In this document: positions 26,616 to 50,113 of the stretch, piece by piece
How the letters are laid out: the number at the start of each line of letters is the position of its first letter
Numbering within the stretch: position 1 is the first letter of the stretch
The notes under the pieces: model-generated
Databases searched by the model: none
Seen by the model: only the letters and a program-made list of their open reading frames with translations
What the model was told of the DNA's origin: nothing
NCBI RefSeq assembly: GCF_002934625.1
Contig: NZ_PTJD01000001.1
Coordinates: 445,041 to 509,040, forward strand
DNA length: 64,000 bases
Reading direction: 5' to 3'
Source: Kineococcus xinjiangensis
GTDB taxonomy: Bacteria; Actinomycetota; Actinomycetes; Actinomycetales; Kineococcaceae
Program-made: the position numbers and the translations under genes

Positions 26616-27250
26616 GGGTCCCGCTCCCAGCACACGGTGAGGTGCACCCCGTCCGCCGGGTTCGAGGACCGGAACCCCCAGCGGGCCCCCTCCGCCCCGC
26701 CCAGGCGGGGTTCCGTTGCGCTGCAGTCCAGCGCGACGGTCCGCGGATCGCGCCCGAGGCCGGTCCCGGTCGCCTTCAGGTACGCCTCCTTGGCGGTCCA
26801 CAGCCTCAGGAAGCGCTCCTGCCGCCCCGCCGCGTCGGGCGCGTCCTCGAACCAGTCCAGCTCACCGGCCGACAGGCAGCGACGGGCGAGCGCCGGAGTG
26901 GTCGCCCGGGGGCCCTCGACGTCGACCCCGACCCGCCCGCCGGTGTGCGTGGCCACGGTGACCCAGCCGCCGCCGTGGGACAGGCTGACGTCGAGCGGCG
27001 GGTCGGCGACCGGACGGCCGGTGGGGGTGCGCCGCACCGACGCGCCGAGATCGGCGGCGAGTCGTCGGAGGAGGTGCCAGCCGAGCGCCGAGTCCTGCCG
27101 GTCCTCCCACCGCTGCAGCCGCGCCAGCCGGTGCTGCTCGGCGGACGGCAGGCCGGCGAGCAGCGCCGACCACGCGGGTGGCGCGAGCCGGGGACCGCGC
27201 GGCACCACGACGAGGTGCGCCGGCGGGGCGGGGGCGGCGTCGCTCTGCAT
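26612..27250 (-). CDS. Sfp-type 4'-phosphopantetheinyl transferase
   Basis: Motifs VGVDVEG and WTAKEAYLKATG are present, and the protein is about 212 aa. Its stop overlaps the megasynthase start, so the two are translationally coupled. Confidence 0.8.
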   Translation of the reverse strand: MQSDAAPAPPAHLVVVPRGPRLAPPAWSALLAGLPSAEQHRLARLQRWEDRQDSALGWHLLRRLAADLGASVRRTPTGRPVADPPLDVSLSHGGGWVTVATHTGGRVGVDVEGPRATTPALARRCLSAGELDWFEDAPDAAGRQERFLRLWTAKEAYLKATGTGLGRDPRTVALDCSATEPRLGGAEGARWGFRSSNPADGVHLTVCWERDP

Positions 27251-35750: not shown

Positions 35751-37186
35751 GCCGCATCCCCTCCGTCCCGGGTGAACACCGCGATCTGGGTGGGCGGGCC
35801 GACCTCGGGATCGTCCGGTCCCGCGCCGGCGAACCGCACGCCGTAGCCGTGCTGGCCGGCCACGTCCGCCGCCCACCGGCGGAACTCCTCCCGCGTCCAC
35901 TCGAAGCGGTGGTCGGGGTGGCGGAAGCGCCCCGCGGGCAGCGACGGGAACCGCACGTTGTGCTCGGCGTTGGGCGTGGTGACCACGACCGTGCGGGGTG
36001 CCGTGAACGCGAAGACGCTGCGCTGCAACGCAGGCAGCCGGGACGGTTCGACGTGCTCCACCACCTCCACGAGGACCGCCGCGTCGAGGCCCGCGAGGCG
36101 GTCGTCTCGGTACGTCAGCGACGTCTGCAGCAGCGCCAGTCGCTCGCGCTGCCGCTGCGGCATCCGGTCCAGGCGCAGCCGCCGCTCCGCGCCCGCCAGC
36201 GCCCGGGAGGAGACGTCGGCCGCGACGATCCGGGTGAACGCCGGATCGGCGAGCAGCTCCGCGACGAGGGCGCCCTCCCCGCAGCCGAGGTCCGCGACCC
36301 GCCGGGCACCGGCCTGCCGCAGCAGTTCCACGACGACGGCGCGGCGCTGAGCCGCGAGGCTCGGCCTCGCGACGGCCGCCGCGGCCTCCTCCGCGGCACG
36401 CAGGACGGCGGCCTCCCCCAGCGCGTCGGGGTCGTCGCCGCCGCCGAGCAGGTCCAGCGCCTCCGAGGCCAGGGACCGCTGGCGGGCGAGGTAGCGGTGG
36501 CTGATGAGTTCCCGCTCGGGGTGGGTCTCCAGCCATCCGGAGCCCACCCGCAGGAGCTTCTCCACCTCCTCCGCACCCACCCAGTAGTGCTTGGCGTCGT
36601 CGAGCACGGGCAGCAGGACGTAGAGGTGGCTCAGCGCGTCGGCCAGGCGCACGGTCCCGCGCAGCCGCAGGTCGACGTACGGGGACGCCCCCCAGGAGGG
36701 CACCTCCTCGTCCAGGGGGAGTTCGCGCGCGTCGACGTCCCAGCCCAGCGGCGCGAACAGCCGGCGCACCAGCTCCGCCCCGCCGTCCGGGCCGCCGCGG
36801 CAGGGCAGCACGGGCAGGCGCACCTGGAGCGGGAGCGCGGCGGCGGCCAGGGCCGGGCGGCTGGTGCAGCGCCCGGCGAGCGCGGTGCGGAACACCGAGG
36901 CGATCGCGACGGCCAGCAGGCTGGACGCGGCGTAGGGGCGGTCGTTGACGTGCTGGTGGAGCGCGAACCCCTCGCCGCCCCTCGCGCCCCGCACCAGTGC
37001 CACCGGGTCCACCTCCAGCAGCAGGGCGGCGGTGCAGCGCTCGGGCGTGGCCTCGGGGTAGACCACGTGGGCGGTGCCGCTGGCGAGCGGGGTCGCCTGC
37101 GGGCGGTCCGGGTGCTTGTGCAGGAGGTGCCCGAGGTCCGTGGCCGGCCGCTCGGGCGTTCCCGTGGTGGTGAGGGTGAGGAGCAC
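35747..37186 (-). CDS. hen1: bacterial Hen1 RNA 3'-terminal ribose 2'-O-methyltransferase
   Basis: The N-terminus has the Hen1 signature LLTLTTTG...ATDLGHLLHKHP. The C-terminus has the SAM methyltransferase motif I (VADLGCGEG) and the HEH/metal-binding region (EVVEHVE). I place the start at GTG 37186. The longer ORF upstream has no Hen1-like sequence. Confidence 0.8.
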   Translation of the reverse strand: MLLTLTTTGTPERPATDLGHLLHKHPDRPQATPLASGTAHVVYPEATPERCTAALLLEVDPVALVRGARGGEGFALHQHVNDRPYAASSLLAVAIASVFRTALAGRCTSRPALAAAALPLQVRLPVLPCRGGPDGGAELVRRLFAPLGWDVDARELPLDEEVPSWGASPYVDLRLRGTVRLADALSHLYVLLPVLDDAKHYWVGAEEVEKLLRVGSGWLETHPERELISHRYLARQRSLASEALDLLGGGDDPDALGEAAVLRAAEEAAAAVARPSLAAQRRAVVVELLRQAGARRVADLGCGEGALVAELLADPAFTRIVAADVSSRALAGAERRLRLDRMPQRQRERLALLQTSLTYRDDRLAGLDAAVLVEVVEHVEPSRLPALQRSVFAFTAPRTVVVTTPNAEHNVRFPSLPAGRFRHPDHRFEWTREEFRRWAADVAGQHGYGVRFAGAGPDDPEVGPPTQIAVFTRDGGDAA

Positions 37187-37345
37187 CGGTCCACACCACC
37201 ACAACGGGGGCCGGATGCGCGCGGGGGTTTCGGTGTCGGCCGGGACGGACCGCAGCGCACCTCCTGCGTCGGTCGTCCCCGTGTGGTACCCACGAGTGTG
37301 GGTGATGCTCAGGACCGGCGCGGACGCCCGGTGCCCCCGGTCCTC

Positions 37346-39469
37346 GTGGACGCTGCACCACGCCCTGCCGCCGTCGGCGCGCAGGAGGCGGACGACGGGG
37401 CGGGCGCGGTGGGGACCGCCCCCGGTGCGGGGATCGACCCGCGTCTGGCGCTGGCCGACGCCGTGGCCGCCGACGCGGAGGCGTGGGTGGTGCACCGGGC
37501 CGTGCGCGACGACGCGGGCGGGGTGGTGGACTTCGAGGCCGTGTGGGCCAACGAGGCCGCGGTGCGGACCTCCGGCCTCGGGCCGATGGTGGGCCGGCGG
37601 CTCCTCGAGATGGTGCCCGAGATCGCCGACAGCCTGTTCCCGGTCTTCCGCAGCGTCGTGGACAGCGGCGAACCGCAGCAGCTGATGACCCCCGCCGTGG
37701 TCAGCGACGCCCGCCCGTCCTGGCGTCCGGGCTGGACCGCCTTCCATCTGCGCGCGGTGGGCGACCTGCTCGTCGTGCACTGGCGGGACGCCACCGAGGA
37801 GCACGGCAACGCCCTGGCCGCCGCCGCCGCCGAGACGCGGCTGCAGGCCCTCCTGCAGAACGCCGACGAGGTCATCGGGGTCTACACCAAGGACGCGAAG
37901 CCGCTGTACCTCAGTCCGTCCGCCCGGCGGGTGCTCGGCACCGGCGCCCCCTCGGCGCACTTCGCCGCCCGGGTGCACGTCGAGGACCGGCCGCTGGTCA
38001 TGGAGGTCTTCGCCACCCTCCTGGCGGGTGGGCCGGGGCAGGTGGTCGAGGTCGAGGCCCGCCTCCAGCACGGCGACGGGCACTGGATGTGGGTGCACGC
38101 CCGGGGCACCAACCACGTCGACGACCCCGACGTGGGTGGCATCGTCATCAACCTGCGCGACATCACCGAGCAGCACGACTTCGCCGAGCAGCTGCGGCGC
38201 CAGGCCCTGCAGGACCCCCTCACCTCGCTGCCCAACCGCCGGCTCATCGACACCGAGCTGGAGAGGGCGCTGGCGCGCACCCGGCGCGGCAGCGAGCTGA
38301 TCGGCGTCCTGCTCTGCGACGTCGACCACTTCAAGAGCATCAACGACCTCCACGGGCACCCGGCCGGTGACGAACTCCTGCAGCAGTTCGGCCGGCGCCT
38401 GTCCTCGGCGGTGCGCCCGGCCGACATCGTCGGCCGGCTCGGGGGCGACGAGTTCATCGTGGTCTGCGAGGACCTCGCCGACGTCGACGACCTGCGCGCC
38501 CTCACCGCGCGCATCCGCTCCGCCGTGTGCGGGGACTACGACATCGCGGGCCGGGACGTCTCCGTCACCGTCACGTTCGGGGCCAGCGCGGGGCGGCACC
38601 CGGACTCCAGCGACGAGGTCCTCAGCCAGGCCGACACTGCCCTGTACGAGGCCAAGCGCGCGGGCCGCGACCGCGTCGAGGTCTTCGACCACCGCATCCA
38701 CCAGCGGCAGAAGCACCGCAGCGCCAGGGAGTCCGCCCTGCGGACGGCGCTGGGTGCGGAGGAGTTCCGCCTGCACTACCAGCCCGTGATCGACCTGCGG
38801 AGCGACCGTGTCGTCGGTGCGGAGGCGCTGCTGCGCTGGGACCACCCGCAGGAGGGCCTGCTGCTGCCCGCCGCGTTCCTCGGGCTGGCCGAGGAGAGCA
38901 ACCTCATCGTCGACATCGGCGCCTGGGTGCTCCGTGCCGCCATGGCGGAGGCCGCCGGCTGGTCCGGGGACGACGGGGGGCGGCCCTGGCTGAGCATCAA
39001 CGTCTCCGGGCGCCAGCTGGCCCACCCCGACCTGCTCCTGCACCTGGACGCGGCGCTGCTGGCGAGCGGGCTGGACCCCGCCCGCGTCGAGATCGAGATC
39101 ACCGAGACGGTCGCCCTCCACGACCTCGACGCGACCCAGCGGGTGCTGACCGCCGTCCGCGCGCGGGGGCTGCACATCGCCCTGGACGACTTCGGCACCG
39201 GCTACTCGTCCCTGACGTGGCTGCAGCGGCTGCCGGTCGACACGGTCAAGCTGGACCGCAGCTTCGTGGCGGACCTGCTCTCCCCCGGAGGTCGGCACAC
39301 CCCCAGCATCATCGGCGGGGTCACGGCACTCGCCCACGCGATGGGCAAGCACGTCATCGCCGAGGGGATCGAGAGCACGCAGCAGCGGGACCACCTCGTC
39401 GAGCTGGGCTGCGACTACGCGCAGGGGTACCTGTTCCACCACCCCGCCCCGCACGGCCCCTTCGGCTGA
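37346..39469 (+). CDS. PAS-GGDEF-EAL signalling protein (c-di-GMP turnover)
   Basis: Two PAS-like sensor domains precede a GGDEF domain, in which RLGGDEF retains the GG(D/E)EF motif. The EAL domain has EALLRW, DDFGTGYSSL and the EGIES motif, consistent with an active phosphodiesterase. The 5' boundary is uncertain: GTG 37346 is a candidate, and the ORF-track start at 35849 lies antisense to hen1 and is rejected. Confidence 0.75.
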   Translation: MDAAPRPAAVGAQEADDGAGAVGTAPGAGIDPRLALADAVAADAEAWVVHRAVRDDAGGVVDFEAVWANEAAVRTSGLGPMVGRRLLEMVPEIADSLFPVFRSVVDSGEPQQLMTPAVVSDARPSWRPGWTAFHLRAVGDLLVVHWRDATEEHGNALAAAAAETRLQALLQNADEVIGVYTKDAKPLYLSPSARRVLGTGAPSAHFAARVHVEDRPLVMEVFATLLAGGPGQVVEVEARLQHGDGHWMWVHARGTNHVDDPDVGGIVINLRDITEQHDFAEQLRRQALQDPLTSLPNRRLIDTELERALARTRRGSELIGVLLCDVDHFKSINDLHGHPAGDELLQQFGRRLSSAVRPADIVGRLGGDEFIVVCEDLADVDDLRALTARIRSAVCGDYDIAGRDVSVTVTFGASAGRHPDSSDEVLSQADTALYEAKRAGRDRVEVFDHRIHQRQKHRSARESALRTALGAEEFRLHYQPVIDLRSDRVVGAEALLRWDHPQEGLLLPAAFLGLAEESNLIVDIGAWVLRAAMAEAAGWSGDDGGRPWLSINVSGRQLAHPDLLLHLDAALLASGLDPARVEIEITETVALHDLDATQRVLTAVRARGLHIALDDFGTGYSSLTWLQRLPVDTVKLDRSFVADLLSPGGRHTPSIIGGVTALAHAMGKHVIAEGIESTQQRDHLVELGCDYAQGYLFHHPAPHGPFG

Positions 39470-39524: not shown

Positions 39525-40946
39525 GTGTCGGGGTCGCTCGCTAGCGTCGGGGACGTGCCGCAGCGCTGGAGCCCCGAGCAGGTGGTCGCGCTGGCCCCGG
39601 ACGCGTCGTCGGTGGCGGCCGGCCGCAAGCTCGCCGCCGCGGGGCCCTGGTCGCAGACGGGTGCCACGGCCGAACCGGCCGCGGTGTGGGGCCTGTGCAA
39701 GGGCAGCGGGAAGACGCCGTACCAGACGATCGTCGACCTCACCGGGCCCGCGTACCGCTGCTCCTGCCCGAGCCGGAAGTTCCCGTGCAAGCACGCCCTC
39801 GGCCTGCTGCTGCTCTGGTCGGCCGGAGGGGTGGAGGAGACCGCCGCCCCCAGCGACTTCGCCGCGGCCTGGCTGGACTCCCGGGCCGCGAAGGCCGCCC
39901 GCAGCACCACCGCCGGGGCGGACGGCACGGGCACCGGGGTCGACGGCACGAGCGCCGGGGTCGACGGCACGAGCGCCGGGGCGGACGGCACGGGGGTCCA
40001 GCGGGACGCGGAGCGGGCGGCCCGCCGACGCGCCGAGCAGCGCGCCGAGCGGATGGGTGCGGGCGCCGCGGACCTGGACCGGTGGCTGCGCGACCGGGTG
40101 CGCACGGGTCTGGCCGGGGCGGACCGCGCCGGCTACGGCGACGTCGACGCGGTGGCGGCGCGGCTGGTGGACGCGCAGGCGCAGGTGCTGGCCGGTGGCG
40201 TCCGGCGGCTGGCGGGGGTGGCGGCCTCCGGCGACGGCTGGCCGGGGCGGCTGCTGGCGGAGCTGGCGCTGCTGCGGTTGCTGACCGCCGCCCACTCCCG
40301 GCTGGCGGACCTGCCCGAGCCGCTGGCCGCGACGGTCCGGGCCCGGGTCGGGTACCCGGTGCGCACGGAGGACGTGCTGGCCACCCCGGCGGTGCGCGAC
40401 CGCTGGAACGTGCTGTCCCTGCGCGACAGCACCGAGGACCGGCTGGTGGTGCGGCGGGTCGTCCTGCTCGGGGAGCACACCGGGCGGGTGGCGGTCGTGC
40501 TCTCCTTCGCCCCGCCGGGGCAGCCGCTGGACGCCTCGCTGGTGCCGGGGCGCAGCCTGGAGGCCGACCTGCACTTCCACCCCGGTTCCGCGCCGCGCGC
40601 CGTGGTCGGCGCCCGCCACGGCGAGCCCGGGGTGCTCGGTGCCGTGGCGGGCGCCGGCGTGGCGGCGGCGCTGGCCTCGTGGGCGCAGGCGCTGGCCGCC
40701 GACCCCTGGCTGACGTCGTGGCCGGTGGTGCTGGCCGCGGTGGTGCCGGCCGCGGACCCGGGCGAGGACCGCCCCGGCAGCCTGCTGGACGAGGCGGGCG
40801 ACGCCCTGCCGCTGGCACCGGGCGCCGAGCCGTGGCACCTGCTCGCCGTCTCCGGTGGCCGGCCGGTGACCGTGGTGGCCGAGCAGACCCCGCTCGGGCT
40901 GCACCCGCTGTCGGCGCTGACGGAGCACGGGCTGGTGGCGCTGTGA
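39525..40946 (+). CDS. SWIM zinc-finger family protein
   Basis: The SWIM C-x-C-x(n)-C-x-H motif is present as CSCPSRKFPCKHALG. The N-terminal RWSPEQVVALAPDASSVAAGRKLA block is typical of this bacterial SWIM family. The start is either GTG 39525 or GTG 39555. The stop overlaps the next gene (GTGA). Confidence 0.8.
   Translation: MSGSLASVGDVPQRWSPEQVVALAPDASSVAAGRKLAAAGPWSQTGATAEPAAVWGLCKGSGKTPYQTIVDLTGPAYRCSCPSRKFPCKHALGLLLLWSAGGVEETAAPSDFAAAWLDSRAAKAARSTTAGADGTGTGVDGTSAGVDGTSAGADGTGVQRDAERAARRRAEQRAERMGAGAADLDRWLRDRVRTGLAGADRAGYGDVDAVAARLVDAQAQVLAGGVRRLAGVAASGDGWPGRLLAELALLRLLTAAHSRLADLPEPLAATVRARVGYPVRTEDVLATPAVRDRWNVLSLRDSTEDRLVVRRVVLLGEHTGRVAVVLSFAPPGQPLDASLVPGRSLEADLHFHPGSAPRAVVGARHGEPGVLGAVAGAGVAAALASWAQALAADPWLTSWPVVLAAVVPAADPGEDRPGSLLDEAGDALPLAPGAEPWHLLAVSGGRPVTVVAEQTPLGLHPLSALTEHGLVAL
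39910..40000 (+). repeat. imperfect tandem repeat of about 24 nt inside the SWIM gene
   Basis: ggggtcgacggcacgagcgccggg occurs twice, flanked by degenerate copies (gcggacggcacgggcacc). It encodes a (GADGTGTGVDGTSAGVDGTSAGADGTG) linker. Confidence 0.45.
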
Positions 40947-42535
40947 GCGGCACGGACCCCGCTCCCCTCTCCTTCGACGACCTCGTCGGCGCGGCGCTGC
41001 TGGGGACCGCGCGCCGGCCGGTGGATCCCGCCGGCCTGCCGGGCGCCGTGGGCGCGAGTGCCGCCGGGCTGCCGGGCGGGGACCCCGCGGCGCTGCTGCT
41101 CGACGCCGCCGCGCTCGCCGTGGTGCACGAGCGCGCGGGGGTGCTGCCGCTGCGCGGACAGCAGCCCGCACCCGCCGCCGGGGAGGAGGCGGGGCGCGTG
41201 GCCGGGCCGGCCGCCGCGGACCGGCTCGGCGGCCTCCTGGCGCGGGCGGGCACCCAGGACGGCGATGCGCTCCTCGCCCTGTGGCTGGACGCCGCGGCCG
41301 CCGCGGGCGTGCTCGCCCCGCCCGTCCTCCTGCCGGACCTGCTGGAGGTGGCCACGCGCTCGCGCGCCACGGCGGCACGGGTGGCGGCCGTGGCCGGGGA
41401 GCGGGGCCGGTGGCTGGCGCAGTGGCGTCCCACCTGGGCCGGCGCCCTGTCCCGGCACACCCCCCTGGGCACCTCCTCCGGCACCGCCGCGCCCGCACCG
41501 CGGCAGCCCGGCGACCCTGCGCAGGACCCGGCGTGGGCGCACGGGGCGCCCGCGGGACGACGGGCGTGGCTGGCTGCGCTGCGGGCCACCGACCCCGCCG
41601 CCGCCCGGGAGGTGCTGGCCACCTCGTGGGCGAGCGAGCGGGGCGAGGACCGCGAGGCGCTGCTGCCGCTGCTGCGGGACGGCCTCGGCCCCGACGACGA
41701 GCCGCTGCTGGAGGTCGCGCTGCGGGACCGGCGCGCCGCGGTGCGGGAGGTGGCCGCGGCGCTGCTGGCGGCCCTGCCCGGCAGCGTGCACGGGCGGCGC
41801 AGCGCCGAGCTGGCACTGCGCCACGTCCGGGTGGAGCGCCGGCGCCTGCGCCGCACGCTGGTCGTGACGCTGCCCGACCTCGACCCCGGGGAGGCGCGGG
41901 CCCTGGGGGTGCCGCCCGCCCCCCACGGGACCGGGGCGAGGCAGTGGCAGCTCCAGCACCTCGTGGCCGCGGCCCCGCTGGCGGTGTGGGAGGACACGCT
42001 GGGCGGCAACGCCGAGGACCTGGTGGCCCTGCCGGTGGCCGACGACCTCTACGCGGTGCTGCACGCGGGCTGGGCGGAGGCGGCGCGCACCCAGCAGGAC
42101 GCCGCGTGGGCGCGGGCCCTGCTGGCCGCCGGGACCACCCGCGACCTCGCCGCCCTCGCGCTCGTGCTGCCGCCGCAGGAGCGGGCCACGGTGGCGGCCG
42201 CCGCCCTGGACGCCGACGACGGCAGGGACCGGCGCTCCCGCCTGCCACCCTCGGCGGAGCTGCTCCGGGTGCTCAGCGGGGTCCCGGCTCCCTGGCCGGA
42301 GCCCCTGGCCCCCTCCGTCGTGACCTGGGTGCGCCGCGTGCGCCGGGCCGCGGTCTGGTACGACCGGCCCGTCGTGCACCTCGCGGGGCTGCGCCTGCCC
42401 TGCGACGAGAGCACCGAGGCCGCGCTGCGCGCCGCCGCCGCGGCCCTGCCCGACGACGCCCCGCTCGCCCCGGACGTCTCCGGGGCCGCAGACACCCTGT
42501 CCTTCCGCCGCCACATGCTCGAGGAGCTCCGTTGA
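40943..42535 (+). CDS. DUF5691-like protein (Ala/Leu-rich, HEAT-like repeats)
   Basis: 530 aa helical repeat protein. Both its start (GTGA) and its stop (TTGA) are coupled to the neighbouring genes. My recollection is that NCBI annotates homologues in this conserved five-gene block as DUF5691. This should be confirmed by HMM search. Confidence 0.65.
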   Translation: MSGTDPAPLSFDDLVGAALLGTARRPVDPAGLPGAVGASAAGLPGGDPAALLLDAAALAVVHERAGVLPLRGQQPAPAAGEEAGRVAGPAAADRLGGLLARAGTQDGDALLALWLDAAAAAGVLAPPVLLPDLLEVATRSRATAARVAAVAGERGRWLAQWRPTWAGALSRHTPLGTSSGTAAPAPRQPGDPAQDPAWAHGAPAGRRAWLAALRATDPAAAREVLATSWASERGEDREALLPLLRDGLGPDDEPLLEVALRDRRAAVREVAAALLAALPGSVHGRRSAELALRHVRVERRRLRRTLVVTLPDLDPGEARALGVPPAPHGTGARQWQLQHLVAAAPLAVWEDTLGGNAEDLVALPVADDLYAVLHAGWAEAARTQQDAAWARALLAAGTTRDLAALALVLPPQERATVAAAALDADDGRDRRSRLPPSAELLRVLSGVPAPWPEPLAPSVVTWVRRVRRAAVWYDRPVVHLAGLRLPCDESTEAALRAAAAALPDDAPLAPDVSGAADTLSFRRHMLEELR

Positions 42536-43689
42536 CGCCGAACCCCGCAGCCCCCTCCCCTGGCGCACCGGGGGCCTCGCCGGCCGCCGCGGACGGCGGG
42601 GCGGGCACGACCGGTCTGCTGCGCCCGCACGCGGAGCAGCAGTTCGCGGCCGAACTGGCGGCGCTCGCCGCCTCCGACGACCGGCCGCGGCCGCCGGCCT
42701 GGCGGCTGTCGCCGGCGGCGGTCGTGACGTACCTGCTGGGCGGGACGCTGCCCGACGGGACCGTCGTCACCCCCAAGTACGTCGGGCCGCGGCGACTGGT
42801 GGAGGTGGCGGTGGCGACGCTGGCGACCGACCGCGCCCTGCTGCTGCTGGGCGTGCCCGGCACGGCGAAGACGTGGGTGAGCGAGCACCTCGCCGCCGCC
42901 GTCTGCGGGCGCTCGACGCTCGTGGTGCAGGGGACCTCCGGCACCGCGGAGGAGGCCGTCCGCTACGGCTGGAACTACGCCCGCCTGCTCGCCGAGGGCC
43001 CCTCCCCCGCGGCGCTGGTGCCCTCGCCGGTGATGGTGGCGATGCGGGAGGCGCAGGTGGCGCGGATCGAGGAGCTGACGCGCATCCCCTCCGACGTGCA
43101 GGACGCGCTCATCACGGTCCTGTCGGAGAAGTCGCTGCCCGTTCCGGAGCTGGGCGTGGAGGTGCAGGCCGCGAAGGGGTTCAACGTCATCGCCACCGCC
43201 AACGACCGCGACCGCGGCGTGAACGAGCTGTCCTCGGCGCTGCGCCGCCGCTTCAACACCGTGGTGCTGCCCCTGCCCGGCACACCGGAGGAGGAGGTGC
43301 AGATCGTGGTCCGGCGCGTGGAGCAGCTCGGCTCCGCGCTGGAACTGCCGGAGGTGCCCGCCGCGCTGGAGGAGATCCGCCGCGTCGTGACGGTGTTCCG
43401 GGAGCTGCGCTCGGGCTCCACCCTGGACGGGCGGACGGCGCTGAAGACGCCGTCGGGCACGCTGTCCACGGCCGAGGCCATCTCCGTGGTGACCCACGGG
43501 CTCGCCCTGTCCGCGCACTTCGGCGACGGGGTGCTGCGCGCCTCCGACATCGCCGCGGGCATCGTGGGCTCCGTGGTCAAGGACCCGGTGGCGGACCGGG
43601 CGGTGTGGGTGGAGTACCTGGAGGCCGTGGCCCGCGAGCGCGAGGGCTGGGCGGACTTCTACCGCGCCTGCCGGGAGGTCACGGGGTGA
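42532..43689 (+). CDS. MoxR-like AAA+ ATPase
   Basis: Walker A LLLGVPGTAKT, Walker B and sensor 1 (FNVIATANDRD) are present. The arginine-finger region and the C-terminal lid are typical of MoxR/AAA_3/AAA_5. A TTG start at 42532 overlaps the upstream stop. Confidence 0.8.
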   Translation: MTPNPAAPSPGAPGASPAAADGGAGTTGLLRPHAEQQFAAELAALAASDDRPRPPAWRLSPAAVVTYLLGGTLPDGTVVTPKYVGPRRLVEVAVATLATDRALLLLGVPGTAKTWVSEHLAAAVCGRSTLVVQGTSGTAEEAVRYGWNYARLLAEGPSPAALVPSPVMVAMREAQVARIEELTRIPSDVQDALITVLSEKSLPVPELGVEVQAAKGFNVIATANDRDRGVNELSSALRRRFNTVVLPLPGTPEEEVQIVVRRVEQLGSALELPEVPAALEEIRRVVTVFRELRSGSTLDGRTALKTPSGTLSTAEAISVVTHGLALSAHFGDGVLRASDIAAGIVGSVVKDPVADRAVWVEYLEAVAREREGWADFYRACREVTG

Positions 43690-46103
43690 GCGCCGAGCCG
43701 GTGGCCCAGGAGCAGGTGACCCACGAGCAGGTGCGCTCCTCGCCTGCGGCGGGCGGGGCGCGGGTGCGGGTCTGCGGGGTCCGCCACCACGGCCCGGGGT
43801 CGGCGCGGGCGGTCCTCGCTGCGCTGGAGTCGCTGCAGCCGGACGTCGTGCTGCTGGAGGGCCCGGCCGACGCGGACCCCCTGGTGGCGCTCGCCGGCGC
43901 GGCGGACATGGAGCCGCCCGTGGCGCTGCTGGCGCACGTCACCGGGGAGCCGCGCACGTCCGCGTTCTGGCCGTTCGCGGTGTTCTCCCCGGAGTGGCAG
44001 GCGCTGCGCTGGGCGGTGCTGCACGGTGTTCCCGTGCGGTTCTGCGACCTGCCCGCCGCGGCGGTGCTCGCGATGCGGGACGACGGGTCCGGAACCGGGG
44101 AACCCGAAGGCGCGGAATCCGGCGGCGCGGAACCCGGCCCCGGCCGTGAGGACGGCGAACCCCCGCGCGGTGACGGGGAGGAGCACGGCGACGACGGTCC
44201 CCGCGACGGGGCCGCCCCGGGAACCGCGGAACTGCTGCGGGCCGATCCCCTCGCGGCCCTCGCCGCCGCCGCGGGCTACGACGACCCCGAGCGCTGGTGG
44301 GACGACGTGGTGGAGTCCCGCCTGGACGCGCCCGCCCCGTTCGACGTCATCACCGACGCGATGGCCGCGGTCCGCGAGCACGCACCGGCGCTGCCCGCCG
44401 CGGAGGAGGAGCGCGAGACGCGCCGCGAGGCGCACATGCGCCAGGTGCTGCGCGCGGTCCTGAAGGAGGGAGCCCAGCGCGTCGCGGTCGTCTGCGGCGC
44501 CTGGCACGCGCCCGCCCTGTCGGGGAAGCTGCCGCCCGCCGCAGCCGACGCGCGCACGCTGCGCGGCCTGCCCAGGCGGCGCGTCTCCCTGACGTGGGTG
44601 CCGTGGACGCACTCCCGGCTCGCGGCGGCCTCCGGCTACGGAGCGGGCGTCGACTCCCCCGGCTGGTACCACCACCTGTTCACCTCCCCCGACGAGCCGG
44701 TCACGCGCTGGCTGATCGCCGTGGCCGGGGTGCTGCGGGCGGAGGACCTGCCCGTCTCCACCGCCTCCGTCATCGAGGCCGTGCGGCTGGCCGACGCCCT
44801 GGCGGTGATGCGGGGGCGGCCGCTGGCCGGGCTGGCGGAGGTGACGGAGGCCACCCGCGCGGTCCTGTGCGAGGGCGACGAGAGCGCCCTGCACCTGGTG
44901 ACGCGGCGCCTCGTCGTCGGTGAGGCGCTCGGCCGGGTGCCGGCGGAGACCCCCGCCGTCCCCCTCGACTCCGACCTGCGCGCCACCGCGAAGGCGCTGC
45001 GCCTCAAGCTCGACCCGCTCGAGCGCACCCTGGAACTCGACCTGCGCAAGGACACCGACCTCGCCCGCTCCCGGCTCCTGCACCGCCTCGCCCTCCTCGG
45101 TGTCGACTGGGGCCGGGCTGCGGCGTCGCTCACCCGGTCCACCGGGACGTTCCGGGAGACGTGGCAGCTCGTGTGGCGGCCGGAACTGGCGGTGGACGTC
45201 ATCGAGGCGTCGGTGTGGGGCACCACGGTGGAGGCTGCGGCCACGGCCCGGGCCGTCGAGCGCGCCGGGGAGGCCACCCTGCCGCAGCTGACCGCCCTGG
45301 TGGAGCGGTGCCTGCTCGCGGGGCTGCCGCAGGCGCTCCCCCCGGTGCTGCGGGCCCTCGACGTGCGCGCCGCCGCGGACGCCGATGTGGAGCACCTGAT
45401 GACCGCGCTGCCGCCGCTGGTGCGCGCCCACCGCTACTCCGACGTGCGCCGCACCGGCAGCGGCGACCTCGCGCAGGTCGCGGACGCACTGCTGGTGCGG
45501 GTGTGCGCGGCGCTGCCCGCGGCGGTCGTCTCCCTCGACGACGACGCCGCGCGCGACCTGCGCCGGGCCGTCGACGCCGTGCACGAGGCTGTGGGGTTGT
45601 GGGAGGACCCGCGGGGTTCGCGGCTGTGGTCGGCCACCCTGGCGGGCCTGGTCGCGGTCGAGCCGGGCCGCCAGGGCCCGCCGGGGCTGCTGGCCGGGCG
45701 GATCGTGCGGCTGCTGCGGGACTCCGGCGACCTGCCGGCTGCGGAGGCCGCGCGCCGCCTGGGGTTCACCCTCTCCCGCGGCACCCCCGCGCCGGCCGCG
45801 GCGGGCTGGGTCGAGGGGTTCCTCGGCTCGGGCGGCGGCACGGTCCTCGTCCACGACGAGGACCTGCTCGCCCTGCTGGACGCGTGGGTGTGCTCGCTGC
45901 CGGAGCGGGAGTTCACGGACGTTCTCCCCCTGCTGCGGCGCACCTTCGGCGGTTTCGCCGCGCCGGAGCGCCGCGCGCTCGGGGACGCGCTGCGGCGGGG
46001 CTCCGGAGCGAGGCGGGGCGAGGGGCGCAGCGCCGGGGTCGACGAGGAGCGGGCCGCACCGGCGCTGCGCACCGCCGCGATGCTCCTGGGAGTTCCGGCA
46101 TGA
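43686..46103 (+). CDS. DUF5682-like large protein with an acidic low-complexity insert
   Basis: 805 aa. The GTGA and ATGA overlaps place it between the MoxR ATPase and VWA genes. I found no recognisable catalytic motif. An acidic Gly/Glu/Asp/Pro-rich linker lies at about nt 44080-44230. Confidence 0.6.
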   Translation: MSAEPVAQEQVTHEQVRSSPAAGGARVRVCGVRHHGPGSARAVLAALESLQPDVVLLEGPADADPLVALAGAADMEPPVALLAHVTGEPRTSAFWPFAVFSPEWQALRWAVLHGVPVRFCDLPAAAVLAMRDDGSGTGEPEGAESGGAEPGPGREDGEPPRGDGEEHGDDGPRDGAAPGTAELLRADPLAALAAAAGYDDPERWWDDVVESRLDAPAPFDVITDAMAAVREHAPALPAAEEERETRREAHMRQVLRAVLKEGAQRVAVVCGAWHAPALSGKLPPAAADARTLRGLPRRRVSLTWVPWTHSRLAAASGYGAGVDSPGWYHHLFTSPDEPVTRWLIAVAGVLRAEDLPVSTASVIEAVRLADALAVMRGRPLAGLAEVTEATRAVLCEGDESALHLVTRRLVVGEALGRVPAETPAVPLDSDLRATAKALRLKLDPLERTLELDLRKDTDLARSRLLHRLALLGVDWGRAAASLTRSTGTFRETWQLVWRPELAVDVIEASVWGTTVEAAATARAVERAGEATLPQLTALVERCLLAGLPQALPPVLRALDVRAAADADVEHLMTALPPLVRAHRYSDVRRTGSGDLAQVADALLVRVCAALPAAVVSLDDDAARDLRRAVDAVHEAVGLWEDPRGSRLWSATLAGLVAVEPGRQGPPGLLAGRIVRLLRDSGDLPAAEAARRLGFTLSRGTPAPAAAGWVEGFLGSGGGTVLVHDEDLLALLDAWVCSLPEREFTDVLPLLRRTFGGFAAPERRALGDALRRGSGARRGEGRSAGVDEERAAPALRTAAMLLGVPA

Positions 46104-47368
46104 GCGCGCCACCCCCCGGCACCGAACCCTCCGGCACCGAAGCACCCGGCAGCGACCCCCTCGGCACCGGCGCGCCAGCGGGCTTCGAGCCCCTCGTCAC
46201 CGGCGCCGACCGGCTGCGCCGCTGGCGGCTGCTGCTCGGCGGGGAGGCCTCGTCCTGCCTGGGCGTGGAGCTGCGGGGGGATTCCGCGGCGATCGACGCC
46301 GCCCTGGCCGCCCTCTACGACGGCGAGGGCAGCGACCCGCGCGGGGGCCCGCGCAGCGCCGGCCTGGGCGCCTCCGCCCCCCGGGTGGCCCGCTGGCTGG
46401 GTGACATCCGCACGTACTTCCCCTCCACGGTGGTGCAGGTGATGCAGCGCGACGCCGTGGAGCGGCTGGACCTGACGCGGCTGCTGCTGGAACCGGAACT
46501 GCTGGAGTCGGTTCAGCCGGACGTGCACCTCGTGGGCACGCTGCTGTCGCTGAACCGGGTGATGCCGGAGCAGACGAAGGCCACCGCGCGGACGGTGGTG
46601 GCCAAGGTGGTCGCCGAGGTGGAGCGGCGCATCGCCGACCGCACGAGGTCCGCCGTCGGCGGGGCGCTCAACCGGGCCACGCGGACGCACCGGCCGAAGC
46701 TGCGCGACCTCGACTTCGACCGGACCATCCGCGCGAACCTCGCCCACTACCTCCCGGAGCACCGCACCGTCGTCCCCGAGCGCCTGGTCGGCCACGGCCG
46801 CCACCAGCAGGCCGTCGCGCGCGACGTGGTGCTGGCCATCGACCAGTCCGGCTCGATGGCCGAGTCGGTGGTGTACGCGTCGGTGTTCGGGGCGGTGCTG
46901 GCCTCGATGCGGGCGCTGCGCACGTCGCTCGTCGTCTTCGACACCGAGGTCGTGGACCTCACCGACCTGCTCCGCGACCCCGTCGACGTCCTGTTCGGCA
47001 CGCAGCTGGGCGGCGGCACCGACATCAACCGCGCCATCGCCTACTCGCAGTCGCTCATCACCCGTCCCGCGGACTCGATGTTCGTGCTCATCAGCGACCT
47101 CTACGAGGGTGGGGTCCGCGACGAGATGCTGCGCCGTGTCGCGCAGCTGACAGCGGCCGGGGTCCAGGTCGTGGTGCTGCTGGCGCTGTCCGACAGCGGC
47201 GCGCCCGCCTTCGACCGGGACAACGCCGCGGCACTGGCCGCCCTGGGGGTTCCGGCGTTCGCGTGCACGCCGGACGCGTTCCCGGACCTCCTCGCCGTCG
47301 CGCTGCAGCGCGGCGACGTCGGCGCCTGGGCGCAGCGCACCCTCGGCAGCGCCGCCACGGGCCGTTGA
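46100..47368 (+). CDS. von Willebrand factor A (VWA) domain protein
   Basis: The C-terminal VWA domain has the MIDAS motif DQSGSM. Downstream T and D residues are also present (GGGTDINRAI, ISDLYEGG). Confidence 0.8.
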   Translation: MSAPPPGTEPSGTEAPGSDPLGTGAPAGFEPLVTGADRLRRWRLLLGGEASSCLGVELRGDSAAIDAALAALYDGEGSDPRGGPRSAGLGASAPRVARWLGDIRTYFPSTVVQVMQRDAVERLDLTRLLLEPELLESVQPDVHLVGTLLSLNRVMPEQTKATARTVVAKVVAEVERRIADRTRSAVGGALNRATRTHRPKLRDLDFDRTIRANLAHYLPEHRTVVPERLVGHGRHQQAVARDVVLAIDQSGSMAESVVYASVFGAVLASMRALRTSLVVFDTEVVDLTDLLRDPVDVLFGTQLGGGTDINRAIAYSQSLITRPADSMFVLISDLYEGGVRDEMLRRVAQLTAAGVQVVVLLALSDSGAPAFDRDNAAALAALGVPAFACTPDAFPDLLAVALQRGDVGAWAQRTLGSAATGR

Positions 47369-47404: not shown

Positions 47405-49036
47405 CTACGCCCGCACGTCGCGGCGGCCGTGGGCGGCGACCCCCGCCGCGGTGAGCAGCAGGGCCACGATCAGCAGCCCCACCGCCCCGGCGCCGTCGTG
47501 CGCCTCGACGGGAACCGCTGCCACGTGCGCGTACGGCGAGAGCGCCCGCACCGCGGGGGGCCAGCCGAAGGTGTCGCTGAACACGAGGAGCAGGAACCCC
47601 CCGGCGGCGGGAACGGCGCCGACGGCGAGGACCGCCCGCGGCAGGACGCCGAAGGCGAGCACCGCCGCGCCGAGGCTGACCAGCATCACCGGCACCGTGT
47701 TCAGCGCCCCGCCCACCCCCGCGGCGACCCCCAGCCCGGACCCGGCGATCCGGGCCCCCGCCCAGGCCGCCGTTCCCGCCAGCGCGGCGAGGAGGGTGCA
47801 GCCGAGCGCGAGGACGGCGGCGTGCCCGGCCAGCTGCGCGCGGCGGGACACGGGCAGGGAGAGCAGGAGCACGTGGCGGCCGGCGGACTCGTCCGCGGCG
47901 TCGGCGGCGATGCGGCTGGCCGCGAACAACCCGCCGGGGACGGCGAGCAGCGCGAACACCGCCGCGAGGTAGCCCTCCGCGCTGCCCATGCCGGTGAAGC
48001 CGGCCTCCGCCGCGGCGGAGGCGAACTGCGGGTTGTCGCCGAGGAAGCCGGTCAGCGACACCGTCAGCAGGCCCACCAGCAGGTAGTAGGCGGCCACCCC
48101 CGCCGTCCACGCCGCCCAGCCGCGCGCCCCGCGACGCACCGCGAACCCGGTGGAGGAGCCCAGCAGCGCCGTCCGCGGGGCGCGCTCGTCCGGCACCCGC
48201 ACCAGGCCCGCGCCGACGTCGCGCCGCTCCACCGCCACGAACGCGAGCACGGCCGGCAGCAGCGCCATGCCGGCCAGCACGAGCAGCGGAACCGGGTCGT
48301 CGGCGGCGTAGGGCCGCACCTGACCGAGCACCCCGAAGGGGCTCAGCCAGCGCAGCCAGCCGAAGGGCTCCGAGCCGTCGGCCACCATGCGCGCCATGAA
48401 GGCGACCGCGAGCACCGCTCCCCCGGCGCCGGCCGCGCTGCGCCGGTCGGGCAGCACCTGCGCGCAGGCCAGGCCGAGCATGACGAAGGCCGCGCCGGTC
48501 AGGGCGGTCCCCGCCCCGTGCAGGAGCGCCCCGGCCGGCTCGGTGCCGACGACGAGCAGCCCTGCGGCCAGCGCGGCACCCACGACGGCCTGCGCGGCCA
48601 GCGCCACCGCCGCCACCCGCAGGAGCAGGGAGCGGGCGGGCAGGGTTCCCGCGCGCAGCAGCGCCCAGCGGCCGGCGTCCTCCTCGCCCCGCGTGACGCG
48701 CACCGTCGACAGCAGCGCCCAGACCGCGACGAGGACCGTCGTCATCAGCCCGGTCCGCCACACCGTGAAACCGCCCGGGTCGTCGAGGGCGACCGCCGGG
48801 CCGAACAGCGTCCGGATCGCGGGGTTGGTGGCGAGCACCTGCAGCGCACCGGCACCGAGCTCGCCGCCCACGGTCTCGCGGTACTGCACGACGACGACCG
48901 GCGGCAGCAGCGCCAGCAGCGCCGCGACGACGAGCGTGCCGCGGCGCAGCTCGCGCACCAGGTGGGCGGTGACGGCCCGGCCGGGCTCGCCCACCGCCGG
49001 GGTGGCGGGGGCCGTCGGGGCGGCCACGGCGCTCAT
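47405..49036 (-). CDS. ABC-2 type exporter permease (large polytopic)
   Basis: 543 aa, 10-12 predicted TM helices, no ATPase motifs. Its start overlaps the stop of the upstream ABC ATPase (ATGA). Confidence 0.7.
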   Translation of the reverse strand: MSAVAAPTAPATPAVGEPGRAVTAHLVRELRRGTLVVAALLALLPPVVVVQYRETVGGELGAGALQVLATNPAIRTLFGPAVALDDPGGFTVWRTGLMTTVLVAVWALLSTVRVTRGEEDAGRWALLRAGTLPARSLLLRVAAVALAAQAVVGAALAAGLLVVGTEPAGALLHGAGTALTGAAFVMLGLACAQVLPDRRSAAGAGGAVLAVAFMARMVADGSEPFGWLRWLSPFGVLGQVRPYAADDPVPLLVLAGMALLPAVLAFVAVERRDVGAGLVRVPDERAPRTALLGSSTGFAVRRGARGWAAWTAGVAAYYLLVGLLTVSLTGFLGDNPQFASAAAEAGFTGMGSAEGYLAAVFALLAVPGGLFAASRIAADAADESAGRHVLLLSLPVSRRAQLAGHAAVLALGCTLLAALAGTAAWAGARIAGSGLGVAAGVGGALNTVPVMLVSLGAAVLAFGVLPRAVLAVGAVPAAGGFLLLVFSDTFGWPPAVRALSPYAHVAAVPVEAHDGAGAVGLLIVALLLTAAGVAAHGRRDVRA

Positions 49037-49941
49037 CGCGCGGCCTCCCCGTAGTAGCCGAGGAAGATCTCCTCCAGGGACGGCTCGCGCACGGACAGCT
49101 GCACCACGTCGTCCCCGGCGACGGCCCGCAGCAGGGGCGCGGGCTCACCGGCCAGGGTGAGCACGACGCGCCCCTCGCCGAGGACCTCGACGTCGGCCAC
49201 ACCGGGGACCGCGGCGAGACCGGCGGGGACGGGCCCGGCGAACGACAGGTGGAACTCGTGGCGGCGCAGGCGGCGCAGCTCGGCGAGGCCCGCGACCTGG
49301 ACGAGGCGCCCGGCCCGCAGGATGCCGACCCGGTCGCAGACCGCCTCCACCTCCGCGAGGACGTGGGAGCTGAGCAGGACCGCCTGCCCGCGGGCGGCGG
49401 CCTCCACCACGCAGCGCTGGAACTCCCGGCCCATCAACGGATCCAGCCCGCTGGTCGGCTCGTCGAGGACGAGCAGCGGGGCGCGCGTGGCGAACGCCGC
49501 CACCAGCGCCACCTTCTGCCGGTTGCCCGTGGAGTAGGCGCGGCACGGCTTGTCCAGCCGCAGGTCGAACCTCTCCACGAGTTCGTCGCGGTAGCCGAGG
49601 TCGGTGCCAGGCCCCAGGTTCGCCAGCAGCTCCAGCGCCTCCGCGCCGGTGAGGTTCGGCCAGAGGGCGACGTCGGCGGGGACGTGGGCGAGGTGGCGGT
49701 GGGCGGCGCGGACGTCCTCGGCGGGGTCGCCGAAGACCCGTGCGCGGCCGGCGGTCGGCCGGGCCAGGCCCAGCAGCATCCGCAGGGTGGTGGACTTGCC
49801 GGCGCCGTTGGGGCCGAGGAACCCGAAGACCTCCCCGGGTTCGATGCGCAGGTCCAGGCGGTCCACCGCCAGGGTCCGCCCGTAGCGCTTGCTCAGTCCC
49901 TCCGCCTCCACGGCGGGCAGGGCAGGGTCGATCGTGGGCAT
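49033..49941 (-). CDS. ABC transporter ATP-binding protein (ABC-2/DrrA-like)
   Basis: Walker A GPNGAGKST, signature YSTGNRQKVALVAAF and Walker B LLVLDEPTSGLD are present. The start is MPTIDP at 49941. The 5' extension in the ORF track is not supported. Confidence 0.85.
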   Translation of the reverse strand: MPTIDPALPAVEAEGLSKRYGRTLAVDRLDLRIEPGEVFGFLGPNGAGKSTTLRMLLGLARPTAGRARVFGDPAEDVRAAHRHLAHVPADVALWPNLTGAEALELLANLGPGTDLGYRDELVERFDLRLDKPCRAYSTGNRQKVALVAAFATRAPLLVLDEPTSGLDPLMGREFQRCVVEAAARGQAVLLSSHVLAEVEAVCDRVGILRAGRLVQVAGLAELRRLRRHEFHLSFAGPVPAGLAAVPGVADVEVLGEGRVVLTLAGEPAPLLRAVAGDDVVQLSVREPSLEEIFLGYYGEAAR

Positions 49942-50113
49942 GGCCGGTCCTCTCGCGGTCGTCGTCCAGTTCGGACTGCCGACCAGGCTTCCCGGCGCAC
50001 CGGTTGAGACAGTACTCCTCCCCCGGGCCCGTGTCAGCGGTTCGACCCCACGCGGCGATGCCCCCGGTCCTCCCCGGACGGGGAGGACCGGGGGCATCGC
50101 CCGGGCGTGGTTC

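Follow-up and report, generated by a model that had tools for sequence, protein, structure and literature searches.

The window analysed here, 64,000 nt of the genome of Kineococcus xinjiangensis (contig NZ_PTJD01000001.1, positions 445,041 to 509,040), includes an operon of five genes, which encode, in this order, a SWIM zinc-finger protein, a DUF5691 protein, a MoxR-type AAA_5 ATPase, a DUF5682 protein and a VWA_CoxE protein. All five are homologous to the DdrT, DdrU, DdrV, DdrW and DdrX proteins of Deinococcus deserti, and three of them (the ATPase, the DUF5682 protein and the VWA protein) are homologous to YehL, YehM and YehP of Escherichia coli, a species that carries a rearranged form of the operon, (yehI)-yehLMPQ. 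On balance, we take the five-gene block to be the K. xinjiangensis copy of a multi-phylum ddrTUVWX operon, the products of which would carry out a damage-induced, ATP-driven remodelling of targets that are presumably bound to nucleic acid.

The five-gene operon and its relatives

A first-pass annotation of this DNA had described five co-directional genes joined by 4-nt start/stop overlaps (GTGA, TTGA, GTGA and ATGA). Apart from the gene starts, this arrangement is confirmed at the same positions (Table 1), and the SWIM, DUF5691, MoxR AAA+, DUF5682 and VWA domains assigned to the products are borne out by Pfam; a scan with NCBIfam matched no specific family to the block proteins. The five open reading frames (ORFs) have a G+C content at third codon positions (GC3) of 0.95–0.97, in a window of ~76% G+C, and zero internal stops. 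Neither a sigma-70 promoter nor an intrinsic terminator was found between 39300 and 47600. The start originally given for the SWIM gene, 39525, is doubtful because positions 39526–39547 correspond to a promoter motif (see below) and not to coding sequence; GTG 39525 probably lies inside the promoter. The SWIM protein at NCBI counts 463 aa, i.e., it starts at GTG 39555, which is most likely the start of the gene, the earlier call being 30 nt too early. The DUF5682 gene starts either at 43686, where a good Shine–Dalgarno sequence (GGGAGG) is located 7 nt 5′ of the codon, or at 43731, as implied by the NCBI protein of 790 aa. Identity of the window DUF5682 protein with a K. xinjiangensis protein is 100%.

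A scan of GTDB species, one genome each, with an alignment of DUF5682 proteins yielded at least 586 stretches with a relative. The best 80 of these constitute our locus set; they are mostly from Actinomycetota, and four loci bear the labels Leptolyngbya, Chloroflexota, Acidimicrobiales and Gemmatimonadota, respectively. With the window proteins as tblastn queries, all five genes were found adjacent to each other in every locus for which the contig is long enough, a co-conservation that upholds the earlier proposal of one dedicated system. Identity with the window protein ranges between 70 and 87% for the AAA_5 ATPase (AAA5), 57 and 80% for the VWA protein, 45 and 62% for the DUF5682 protein, 38 and 58% for the SWIM protein and 28 and 48% for the DUF5691 protein. 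In an exhaustive HMMER scan (E ≤ 1e-3), the DUF5682 family comprises 4,259 clusters at 50% identity. The locus labelled Gemmatimonadota (L008) is from a metagenome-assembled genome; its AAA5 is 82% identical to that of Kineococcus and it has the PafBC-type promoter motif described below, and it is probably a mis-binned actinobacterial contig.

The gene order is not uniform. In 12 out of 12 Streptomycetaceae loci, the SWIM–DUF5691 gene pair is transcribed divergently from the AAA5–DUF5682–VWA genes; therefore, the block consists of two sub-modules that stay together, and there is no obligate single transcript. The obligate co-translation proposed in the first-pass annotation was thus overstated. 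The two sub-blocks are adjacent in every locus examined, in eight phyla. Deinococcus and Rhizobium have the order SWIM, DUF5691, AAA, DUF5682, VWA, and so has Hymenobacter, where SWIM and DUF5691 are fused in one protein of 1009 aa (residues 3–457 and 563–1000, respectively). In Bacillus mycoides and E. coli, the order is DUF4132, AAA, DUF5682, VWA, SWIM.

The operon is not undescribed, nor are its homologues annotated by domain names only, as had been supposed: it was published in D. deserti as ddrTUVWX (Deide_18730–18690; Blanchard et al. 2017, PMC5552922). The first product was reported as a SWIM zinc-finger protein, the last as a VWA CoxE-like protein, and those in the middle include proteins of 39.5 and 79.3 kDa. 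The operon is preceded by the RDRM (for radiation/desiccation response motif), the operator of the DdrO repressor, and it is among the most highly radiation-induced genes, with an IrrE-dependent induction of ddrT of more than 10-fold (PMC5552922). A review from 2018 lists the function of ddrTUVWX as unknown (PMC6300522). In our data, the D. deserti SWIM protein (P0443) lies in locus L086 (9001–16272), where the order is adk, SWIM, DUF5691, AAA_5 (368 aa), DUF5682 (728 aa), VWA_CoxE and infA, with flanks in agreement with Deide_18740 and Deide_18680 of PMC5552922. In blastp comparisons, the window proteins are 38% (SWIM with DdrT; 8e-45), 37% (DUF5691 with DdrU; 1e-27), 72% (AAA_5 with DdrV; E 0), 49% (DUF5682 with DdrW; E 0) and 59% identical (VWA_CoxE with DdrX; 3e-153).

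The two operons have five co-directional genes in identical order with all five products homologous, overlapping junctions and, directly before the first gene, a damage-responsive element (putative in Kineococcus). They differ in the nature of that element: Deinococcus has a sigma-70 promoter with an RDRM for DdrO, whereas the Kineococcus operon would have an activator-dependent, PafBC-type promoter and a leaderless mRNA. They differ also in what is known of them, since induction was measured in Deinococcus only. In D. deserti, ddrTUVWX is inserted between adk and infA in the conserved cluster of ribosomal-protein, secY, adk, infA and rpoA genes.

In E. coli K-12, yehL, yehM, yehP and yehQ scan as AAA_5, DUF5682 (E 2e-98), VWA_CoxE and SWIM, respectively. 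The window ATPase is 40% identical to YehL over 362 aa (E 4e-75; hhalign probability 100%), the DUF5682 protein 28% identical to YehM (E 5e-30; hhalign probability 100% over 672 columns) and the VWA protein 39% identical to YehP (E 1e-80). The window SWIM protein and YehQ both match PF04434; outside the finger, hhalign gave only P 0.006 over 38 columns. The E. coli cluster shares with the window block the trio AAA_5 MoxR, DUF5682, VWA_CoxE in equal order and the presence of a SWIM gene, which is last rather than first in E. coli, and YehQ has two SWIM fingers. E. coli lacks DUF5691 and has WGR/DUF4132 genes (YehI, MolR) upstream instead, as in Bacillus mycoides. No homologue of YehI or YehF was found in the window or in the 80 loci, and hhalign showed no relation of DUF5691 with DUF4132, DUF5682 or YehQ.

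One of the seven MoxR subfamilies is named after YehL, its type member (Snider & Houry 2006, as cited in PMC3893208). The earlier statement that no MoxR–VWA machine with a SWIM finger and two large DUF proteins was known does not stand in view of the AAA_5/DUF5682/VWA_CoxE/SWIM composition of yehLMPQ and of the published YehL subfamily (PMC3893208). Literature searches on yehL, yehM, yehP and yehQ returned no functional study: a YehQ match in cross-linking work is an entrapment-database artefact, and a paper on butanol merely lists yehQ strains. Full-text searches on DUF5682, DUF5691 and their Pfam/InterPro accessions found nothing, and those on SWIM plus MoxR plus VWA or on PafBC plus SWIM found irrelevant papers only.

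Promoters and probable DNA-damage regulation

The promoter consensus of PafBC (RecA-NDp/P1) spans 22 nt, tGTCgg-N10-tA-N3-T (PMC8635444; PMC5656591 Table S1). Directly before the SWIM gene, positions 39526–39547 match this consensus; they read TGTCGGGGTCGCTCGCTAGCGT, i.e., TGTCGG, GGTCGCTCGC and TAGCGT, with the first and last parts as putative −26 and −10 elements. The pattern TGTCRG-N10-TANNNT has this one match on both strands of the 64-kb window, versus 0.07 expected; the pafBC genes themselves are not in the window. The −10 element and GTG 39555 are separated by 7 nt, and the mRNA of the Kineococcus operon is probably leaderless, judging from this spacing. Of 74 loci, 29 have the exact motif ahead of the SWIM gene, at a distance of 25–41 nt from the start codon (71 nt in three loci); when one mismatch at most is allowed with GTC fixed, it occurs in 58 of the 74, versus about one expected from background. 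It is absent at the Leptolyngbya (cyanobacterial), Chloroflexota and Acidimicrobiales loci. A LexA box (TCGAAC-N4-GTTCGA) was found 5′ of the actinobacterial operons at background level only.

A second PafBC-type copy faces the AAA5 gene in all 12 divergent Streptomycetaceae loci and in none of the 67 co-directional loci. In these Streptomycetaceae, the intergenic region harbours back-to-back candidate promoters, TGTCAGTG-N8-TAnnnT and TGTCAGTG-N8-CAnnnT, the latter facing AAA5. For Streptomyces venezuelae, a published motif search had suggested a lack of conservation of the mycobacterial PafBC motif (PMC9380542); at the operon locus, a PafBC-type motif is kept in Streptomycetaceae. In Mycobacterium smegmatis, MSMEG_5511, a possible homologue of DdrX/YehP, is annotated as “von Willebrand factor, type A”, with a P1 motif upstream and a PafBC-dependent protein level (PMC5656591 Table S1).

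In D. taeanensis, the operon is preceded by TTGACA-N17-TACAAT and, directly after it, the RDRM TTACGCCAGAAACATAA; this promoter–RDRM pattern occurs once in the locus and in 0 out of 200 shuffles. In D. deserti, TACAAT is followed by the RDRM TTACGTTCAAAGCGTAA, which adjoins the −10 element. An RDRM is not present 5′ of the window operon, where the PafBC-type promoter takes that position. The regulator of the operon is lineage-specific; hence, the absence of the RDRM is no argument against orthology.

Genes for DUF4132 and WGR proteins are described as damage-regulated in the literature; therefore, the upstream regions were scanned for damage-response motifs. At the head of the E. coli cluster, yehF/molR is preceded at 9 nt by a LexA-like box, AACTGGATAAAATTACAGGG. 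This box, weak evidence by itself, agrees with a cited claim that molR is a member of the LexA regulon. Regulatory systems of two unrelated kinds, possibly three, thus point the same way, which argues that the operon belongs to the DNA-damage response.

Functional features of the proteins and a possible mechanism

The ATPase has a Walker A motif (GVPGTAKT), a Walker B motif (IEEL), a sensor-1 N and an Arg finger (RRRF), invariant in 80 out of 80 loci. In place of the usual Asp-Glu, its Walker B motif has Glu-Glu (residues 180–181; window 43069–43074), likewise in all 80 loci, a feature common to the window ATPase and E. coli YehL (IEEL/FEEI). Its nearest solved relatives in a PDB search are midasin (3e-16) and then NorQ (9e-9); the ATPase was compared directly with YehL and, through the PDB search, with NorQ and midasin. 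In the VWA protein, the metal ion-dependent adhesion site (MIDAS) is intact (D248-x-S-x-S, T307 and D333) and kept in 78–80 of 80 loci, and there is a conserved N-terminal RWRLLLG region. PDB sequence searches with the VWA, DUF5682 and DUF5691 proteins gave no match.

As in midasin (Rea1), an AAA_5 motor would be combined with a MIDAS domain by which a ligand is gripped and drawn away from a large particle. Midasin is a single chain of 4,900 residues with six fused AAA modules, unlike the window ATPase and MIDAS protein, which are separate small proteins; the likeness concerns the mechanism, by analogy, and does not make them members of one family. The operon also resembles RavA/ViaA, NorQ/NorD, CbbQ/CbbO and CoxD/CoxE, where the gene for a MoxR-class ATPase stands beside that for a VWA/MIDAS partner, and its VWA protein is CoxE-like. 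Those pairs are found beside their own client enzyme and are without SWIM, DUF5691 or DUF5682, whereas no client gene is encoded near the block in the 80 loci.

The DUF5682 protein, described earlier as an 805-aa protein without motifs, carries a recognisable set of them: GxRHH...E58...R247-E248...GxWH274 in the N-terminal domain, followed by a C-terminal helical scaffold of ~500 residues. G31-x-x-H34, E58, R247/E248 and G271-x-x-H274 are invariant in 80–81 sequences and present in E. coli YehM. Paired GxxH motifs with a conserved Glu and Arg define the TraB/TIKI/ChaN/EreA superfamily, and the N-terminal domain has a fold of this kind; it may also have hydrolase activity. Unlike the TraB/PrgY/TIKI/ChaN/erythromycin-esterase superfamily, the DUF5682 domain is fused to the helical scaffold.

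The SWIM protein consists of the finger (CxCx6CxH: C79/C81/C88/H90, numbered from 39525), a long helical region and a beta-rich C-terminal domain with barrels that appear similar to the oligonucleotide/oligosaccharide-binding (OB) fold. In a structural comparison, ZSWIM8 was the top match, next to OB-fold matches; Foldseek of the SWIM model versus the PDB gave no significant match. DUF5691 is the partner of the SWIM protein, to which it is fused in Hymenobacter.

These features can be combined in a model. The operon would be switched on after DNA damage, in Actinobacteria by PafBC activated by single-stranded DNA. The YehL-type MoxR ATPase would form a hexameric motor and the VWA/MIDAS protein would be its adaptor, gripping an acidic target residue, so that the two together would be akin to a split midasin. 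DUF5691 and the SWIM protein, which is ZSWIM8-like and has OB-like barrels, may constitute a recognition module that brings the motor to its nucleic-acid-bound target, most likely on single-stranded or damaged DNA. DUF5682 would be a scaffold, and cleavage of the target, once extracted, may fall to its TraB/TIKI-like domain. The job we favour for this hypothetical machine is to remove or process, driven by ATP, proteins that are trapped on damaged DNA; both the substrate and the hydrolase activity are conjectural.

A wider proposition, which we regard as rather doubtful at present, is that ddrTUVWX/yehLMPQ represents an unrecognised pan-bacterial pathway of DNA-damage tolerance, in which a split-midasin motor, a SWIM–OB sensor and a TIKI-like hydrolase that cleaves the extracted proteins act together, and for which three unrelated damage regulators (DdrO/IrrE, PafBC and possibly LexA) were recruited independently. 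Were it true, its targets would be proteins trapped on damaged or single-stranded DNA, for example DNA–protein crosslinks, poisoned topoisomerases or stalled complexes.

Several observations weigh against a damage-induced remodelling machine. The 80 loci show no conserved DNA-repair gene next to the block. The competence of the ATPase is assumed, given its Glu-Glu Walker B motif. The Pfam TraB model does not match the DUF5682 protein at E < 0.01, and ChaN-like members of the TraB superfamily are non-enzymes. As for regulation, the PafBC promoter assignment for the actinobacterial operons rests on sequence alone, the LexA-like box of E. coli lies ~8 kb 5′ of yehL, and no SOS-type box was found at two further loci (no Cheo box in B. 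mycoides, no GAAC-N7-GAAC in Rhizobium). Moreover, the E. coli yeh cluster is silenced by H-NS, as reported for yehL and yehM (PMC3686432).

Alternative explanations and neighbouring genes

The operon might instead serve the quality control of RNA or ribosomes after genotoxic stress, with the split midasin stripping damaged ribonucleoprotein particles and the SWIM/OB module reading RNA. Midasin, the nearest solved relative of the ATPase, remodels in ribosome biogenesis, ZSWIM8 recognises an Argonaute–RNA complex, and in D. deserti not only does the operon sit in the ribosomal-protein/secY/adk/infA cluster but the RNA-repair genes for RtcB and LigT are radiation-induced too (PMC5552922). We nevertheless consider this unlikely: the PafBC and DdrO regulons comprise mostly DNA-repair genes, PafBC senses single-stranded DNA, and the ribosomal context, seen in a single genome, lacks conservation in the 80 loci, as does the Hen1–Pnkp RNA-repair neighbourhood of the window. 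It appears quite unlikely, too, that the proteins are a maturation or metal-insertion chaperone like CoxD/CoxE, NorQ/NorD and CbbQ/CbbO, for a client encoded elsewhere and needed under stress. It would fit that all characterised MoxR–VWA pairs work in such a way (PMC3893208), that the VWA protein is in a CoxE-like family and that NorQ comes second, after midasin, among the solved relatives of the ATPase. However, the 80 loci have no conserved candidate for a client gene next to the block, the SWIM protein, DUF5691 or DUF4132, and DUF5682 are three extra conserved partners without counterpart in the chaperone systems, and the operon appears to be under damage-specific regulators in at least two phyla.

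A conflict role had been suggested in the first-pass annotation, and an anti-phage system of the MoxR–vWA NTP-dependent kind could be DNA-damage-induced since phage attack or prophage induction yields single-stranded DNA. Conflict systems with MoxR–vWA cores have indeed been predicted, cell death is triggered by HopBA1, an effector of the TraB/EreA-like kind, several defence systems are reported to be controlled by WYL regulators akin to PafBC, and there is a match to bpMoxR, weak at 25.8 bits and below the 27-bit cut-off. This role is nonetheless very unlikely in the light of the distribution of the genes: the five block proteins have 0 PADLOC matches, of 5426 complete E. coli genomes, 5333 (98%) have yehM, at a single chromosomal site, the family of this gene is rare on plasmids (44 of 72,556) and nearly absent from phages (1 of 50,697 records), AAA5 is 70–87% identical across actinobacterial genera and 72% identical to Deinococcus, and the neighbours do not form a conserved defence island. 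Finally, SWIM plus DUF5691 and AAA5 plus DUF5682 plus VWA could be two independent modules, mere neighbours rather than one machine, as the divergent transcription in Streptomycetaceae and the position of the SWIM gene at the opposite end of the E. coli and Bacillus clusters, with DUF4132 replacing DUF5691, might suggest. The constant adjacency of the sub-blocks across eight phyla and the fact that the divergent loci appear to drive both from PafBC-type promoters in one short intergenic region make such independence highly improbable.

The features of the window are collected in Table 1. The first-pass annotation had placed the block between the RNA-repair genes Hen1–Pnkp and an ABC exporter and had taken these neighbours as a functional hint. 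The genes are present, but it is a PAS-GGDEF-EAL gene that lies directly upstream, ending 55 nt before the promoter motif. All-against-all clustering of the flank ORFs of the 80 loci gave no family common to more than 15 of them; therefore, we regard Hen1–Pnkp, the GGDEF-EAL gene and the ABC transporter as incidental neighbours and reject them as functional context. Indeed, the Hen1–Pnkp pair accompanies the operon in no other locus of the set, and a homologue of the PAS-GGDEF-EAL gene is near the operon in one of the 80 (L075). By chance, the D. taeanensis and Rhizobium operons have a diguanylate cyclase gene and an EAL gene in their vicinity. Downstream, the ORF of ~580 aa that converges on the operon end may encode the permease partner. 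Further away, the 4019-aa hybrid of a non-ribosomal peptide synthetase and a polyketide synthase (NRPS-PKS), with two adenylation domains, a ketosynthase–acyltransferase–ketoreductase (KS-AT-KR) module, three carrier and two condensation domains, looks like an ordinary secondary-metabolite megasynthase.

Table 1. Genes and promoter elements of the window (Streptomycetaceae promoter pair in coordinates of its own locus)
Feature	Position	Strand	Evidence and remarks
Gene 1, SWIM zinc-finger, ddrT-like	39555..40946	+	Pfam SWIM 27 bits (cut-off 19.6)
Gene 2, DUF5691, ddrU-like	40943..42535	+	Pfam DUF5691 full length, E 1e-120
Gene 3, AAA_5 MoxR ATPase, ddrV-like	42532..43689	+	Pfam AAA_5, E 7e-38
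Gene 4, DUF5682 (YehM family), ddrW-like	43686..46103	+	Pfam DUF5682 full length, E 2e-275
Gene 5, VWA_CoxE, ddrX-like	46100..47368	+	Pfam VWA_CoxE, E 5e-51
Putative PafBC (RecA-NDp/P1)-type promoter, TGTCGG-N10-TAGCGT, −26 and −10 elements	39526..39547	+	Consensus match
Candidate divergent promoter pair	L039 8548-8640; also L055, L056, L061-L063, L067, L071, L076-L079		Streptomycetaceae
PAS-GGDEF-EAL, cyclic di-GMP turnover gene	~37400-39469	+	Frame-specific GC and Pfam; directly upstream of the block
Hen1, RNA repair	35747-37402	-	Pfam
Pnkp, RNA repair	33138-35756	-	Pfam; junction with Hen1 overlaps
Hybrid NRPS-PKS, 4019 aa, single ORF	14802-26861	-	Pfam
ORF of ~580 aa	47405-49144	-	GC3 0.94, no Pfam match; converges on the operon end
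DrrA-like ATP-binding cassette (ABC) ATPase	49033-50097		Overlapped by the ~580-aa ORF 47405-49144, which lies downstream of it

The accessory, stress-related role and the lack of an assigned biochemical function with which the block had been credited both hold, and the operon is one of the larger conserved bacterial gene sets without known biochemistry. Three points appear to be new within the searchable literature: that ddrTUVWX, yehLMPQ and the actinobacterial operon belong together, the conserved, putatively leaderless promoter of the PafBC type, and the fold assignments. Three literatures that are unconnected as far as can be searched, i.e., those on the YehL subfamily of MoxR ATPases, on the ddr genes of Deinococcus and on the PafBC regulon of Actinobacteria, are joined by this operon. 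With the domain-level hypotheses offered here (a TIKI-like hydrolase, a ZSWIM8/OB-like sensor and a split midasin), an orphan operon becomes a concrete, testable candidate for a new activity in the DNA-damage response.

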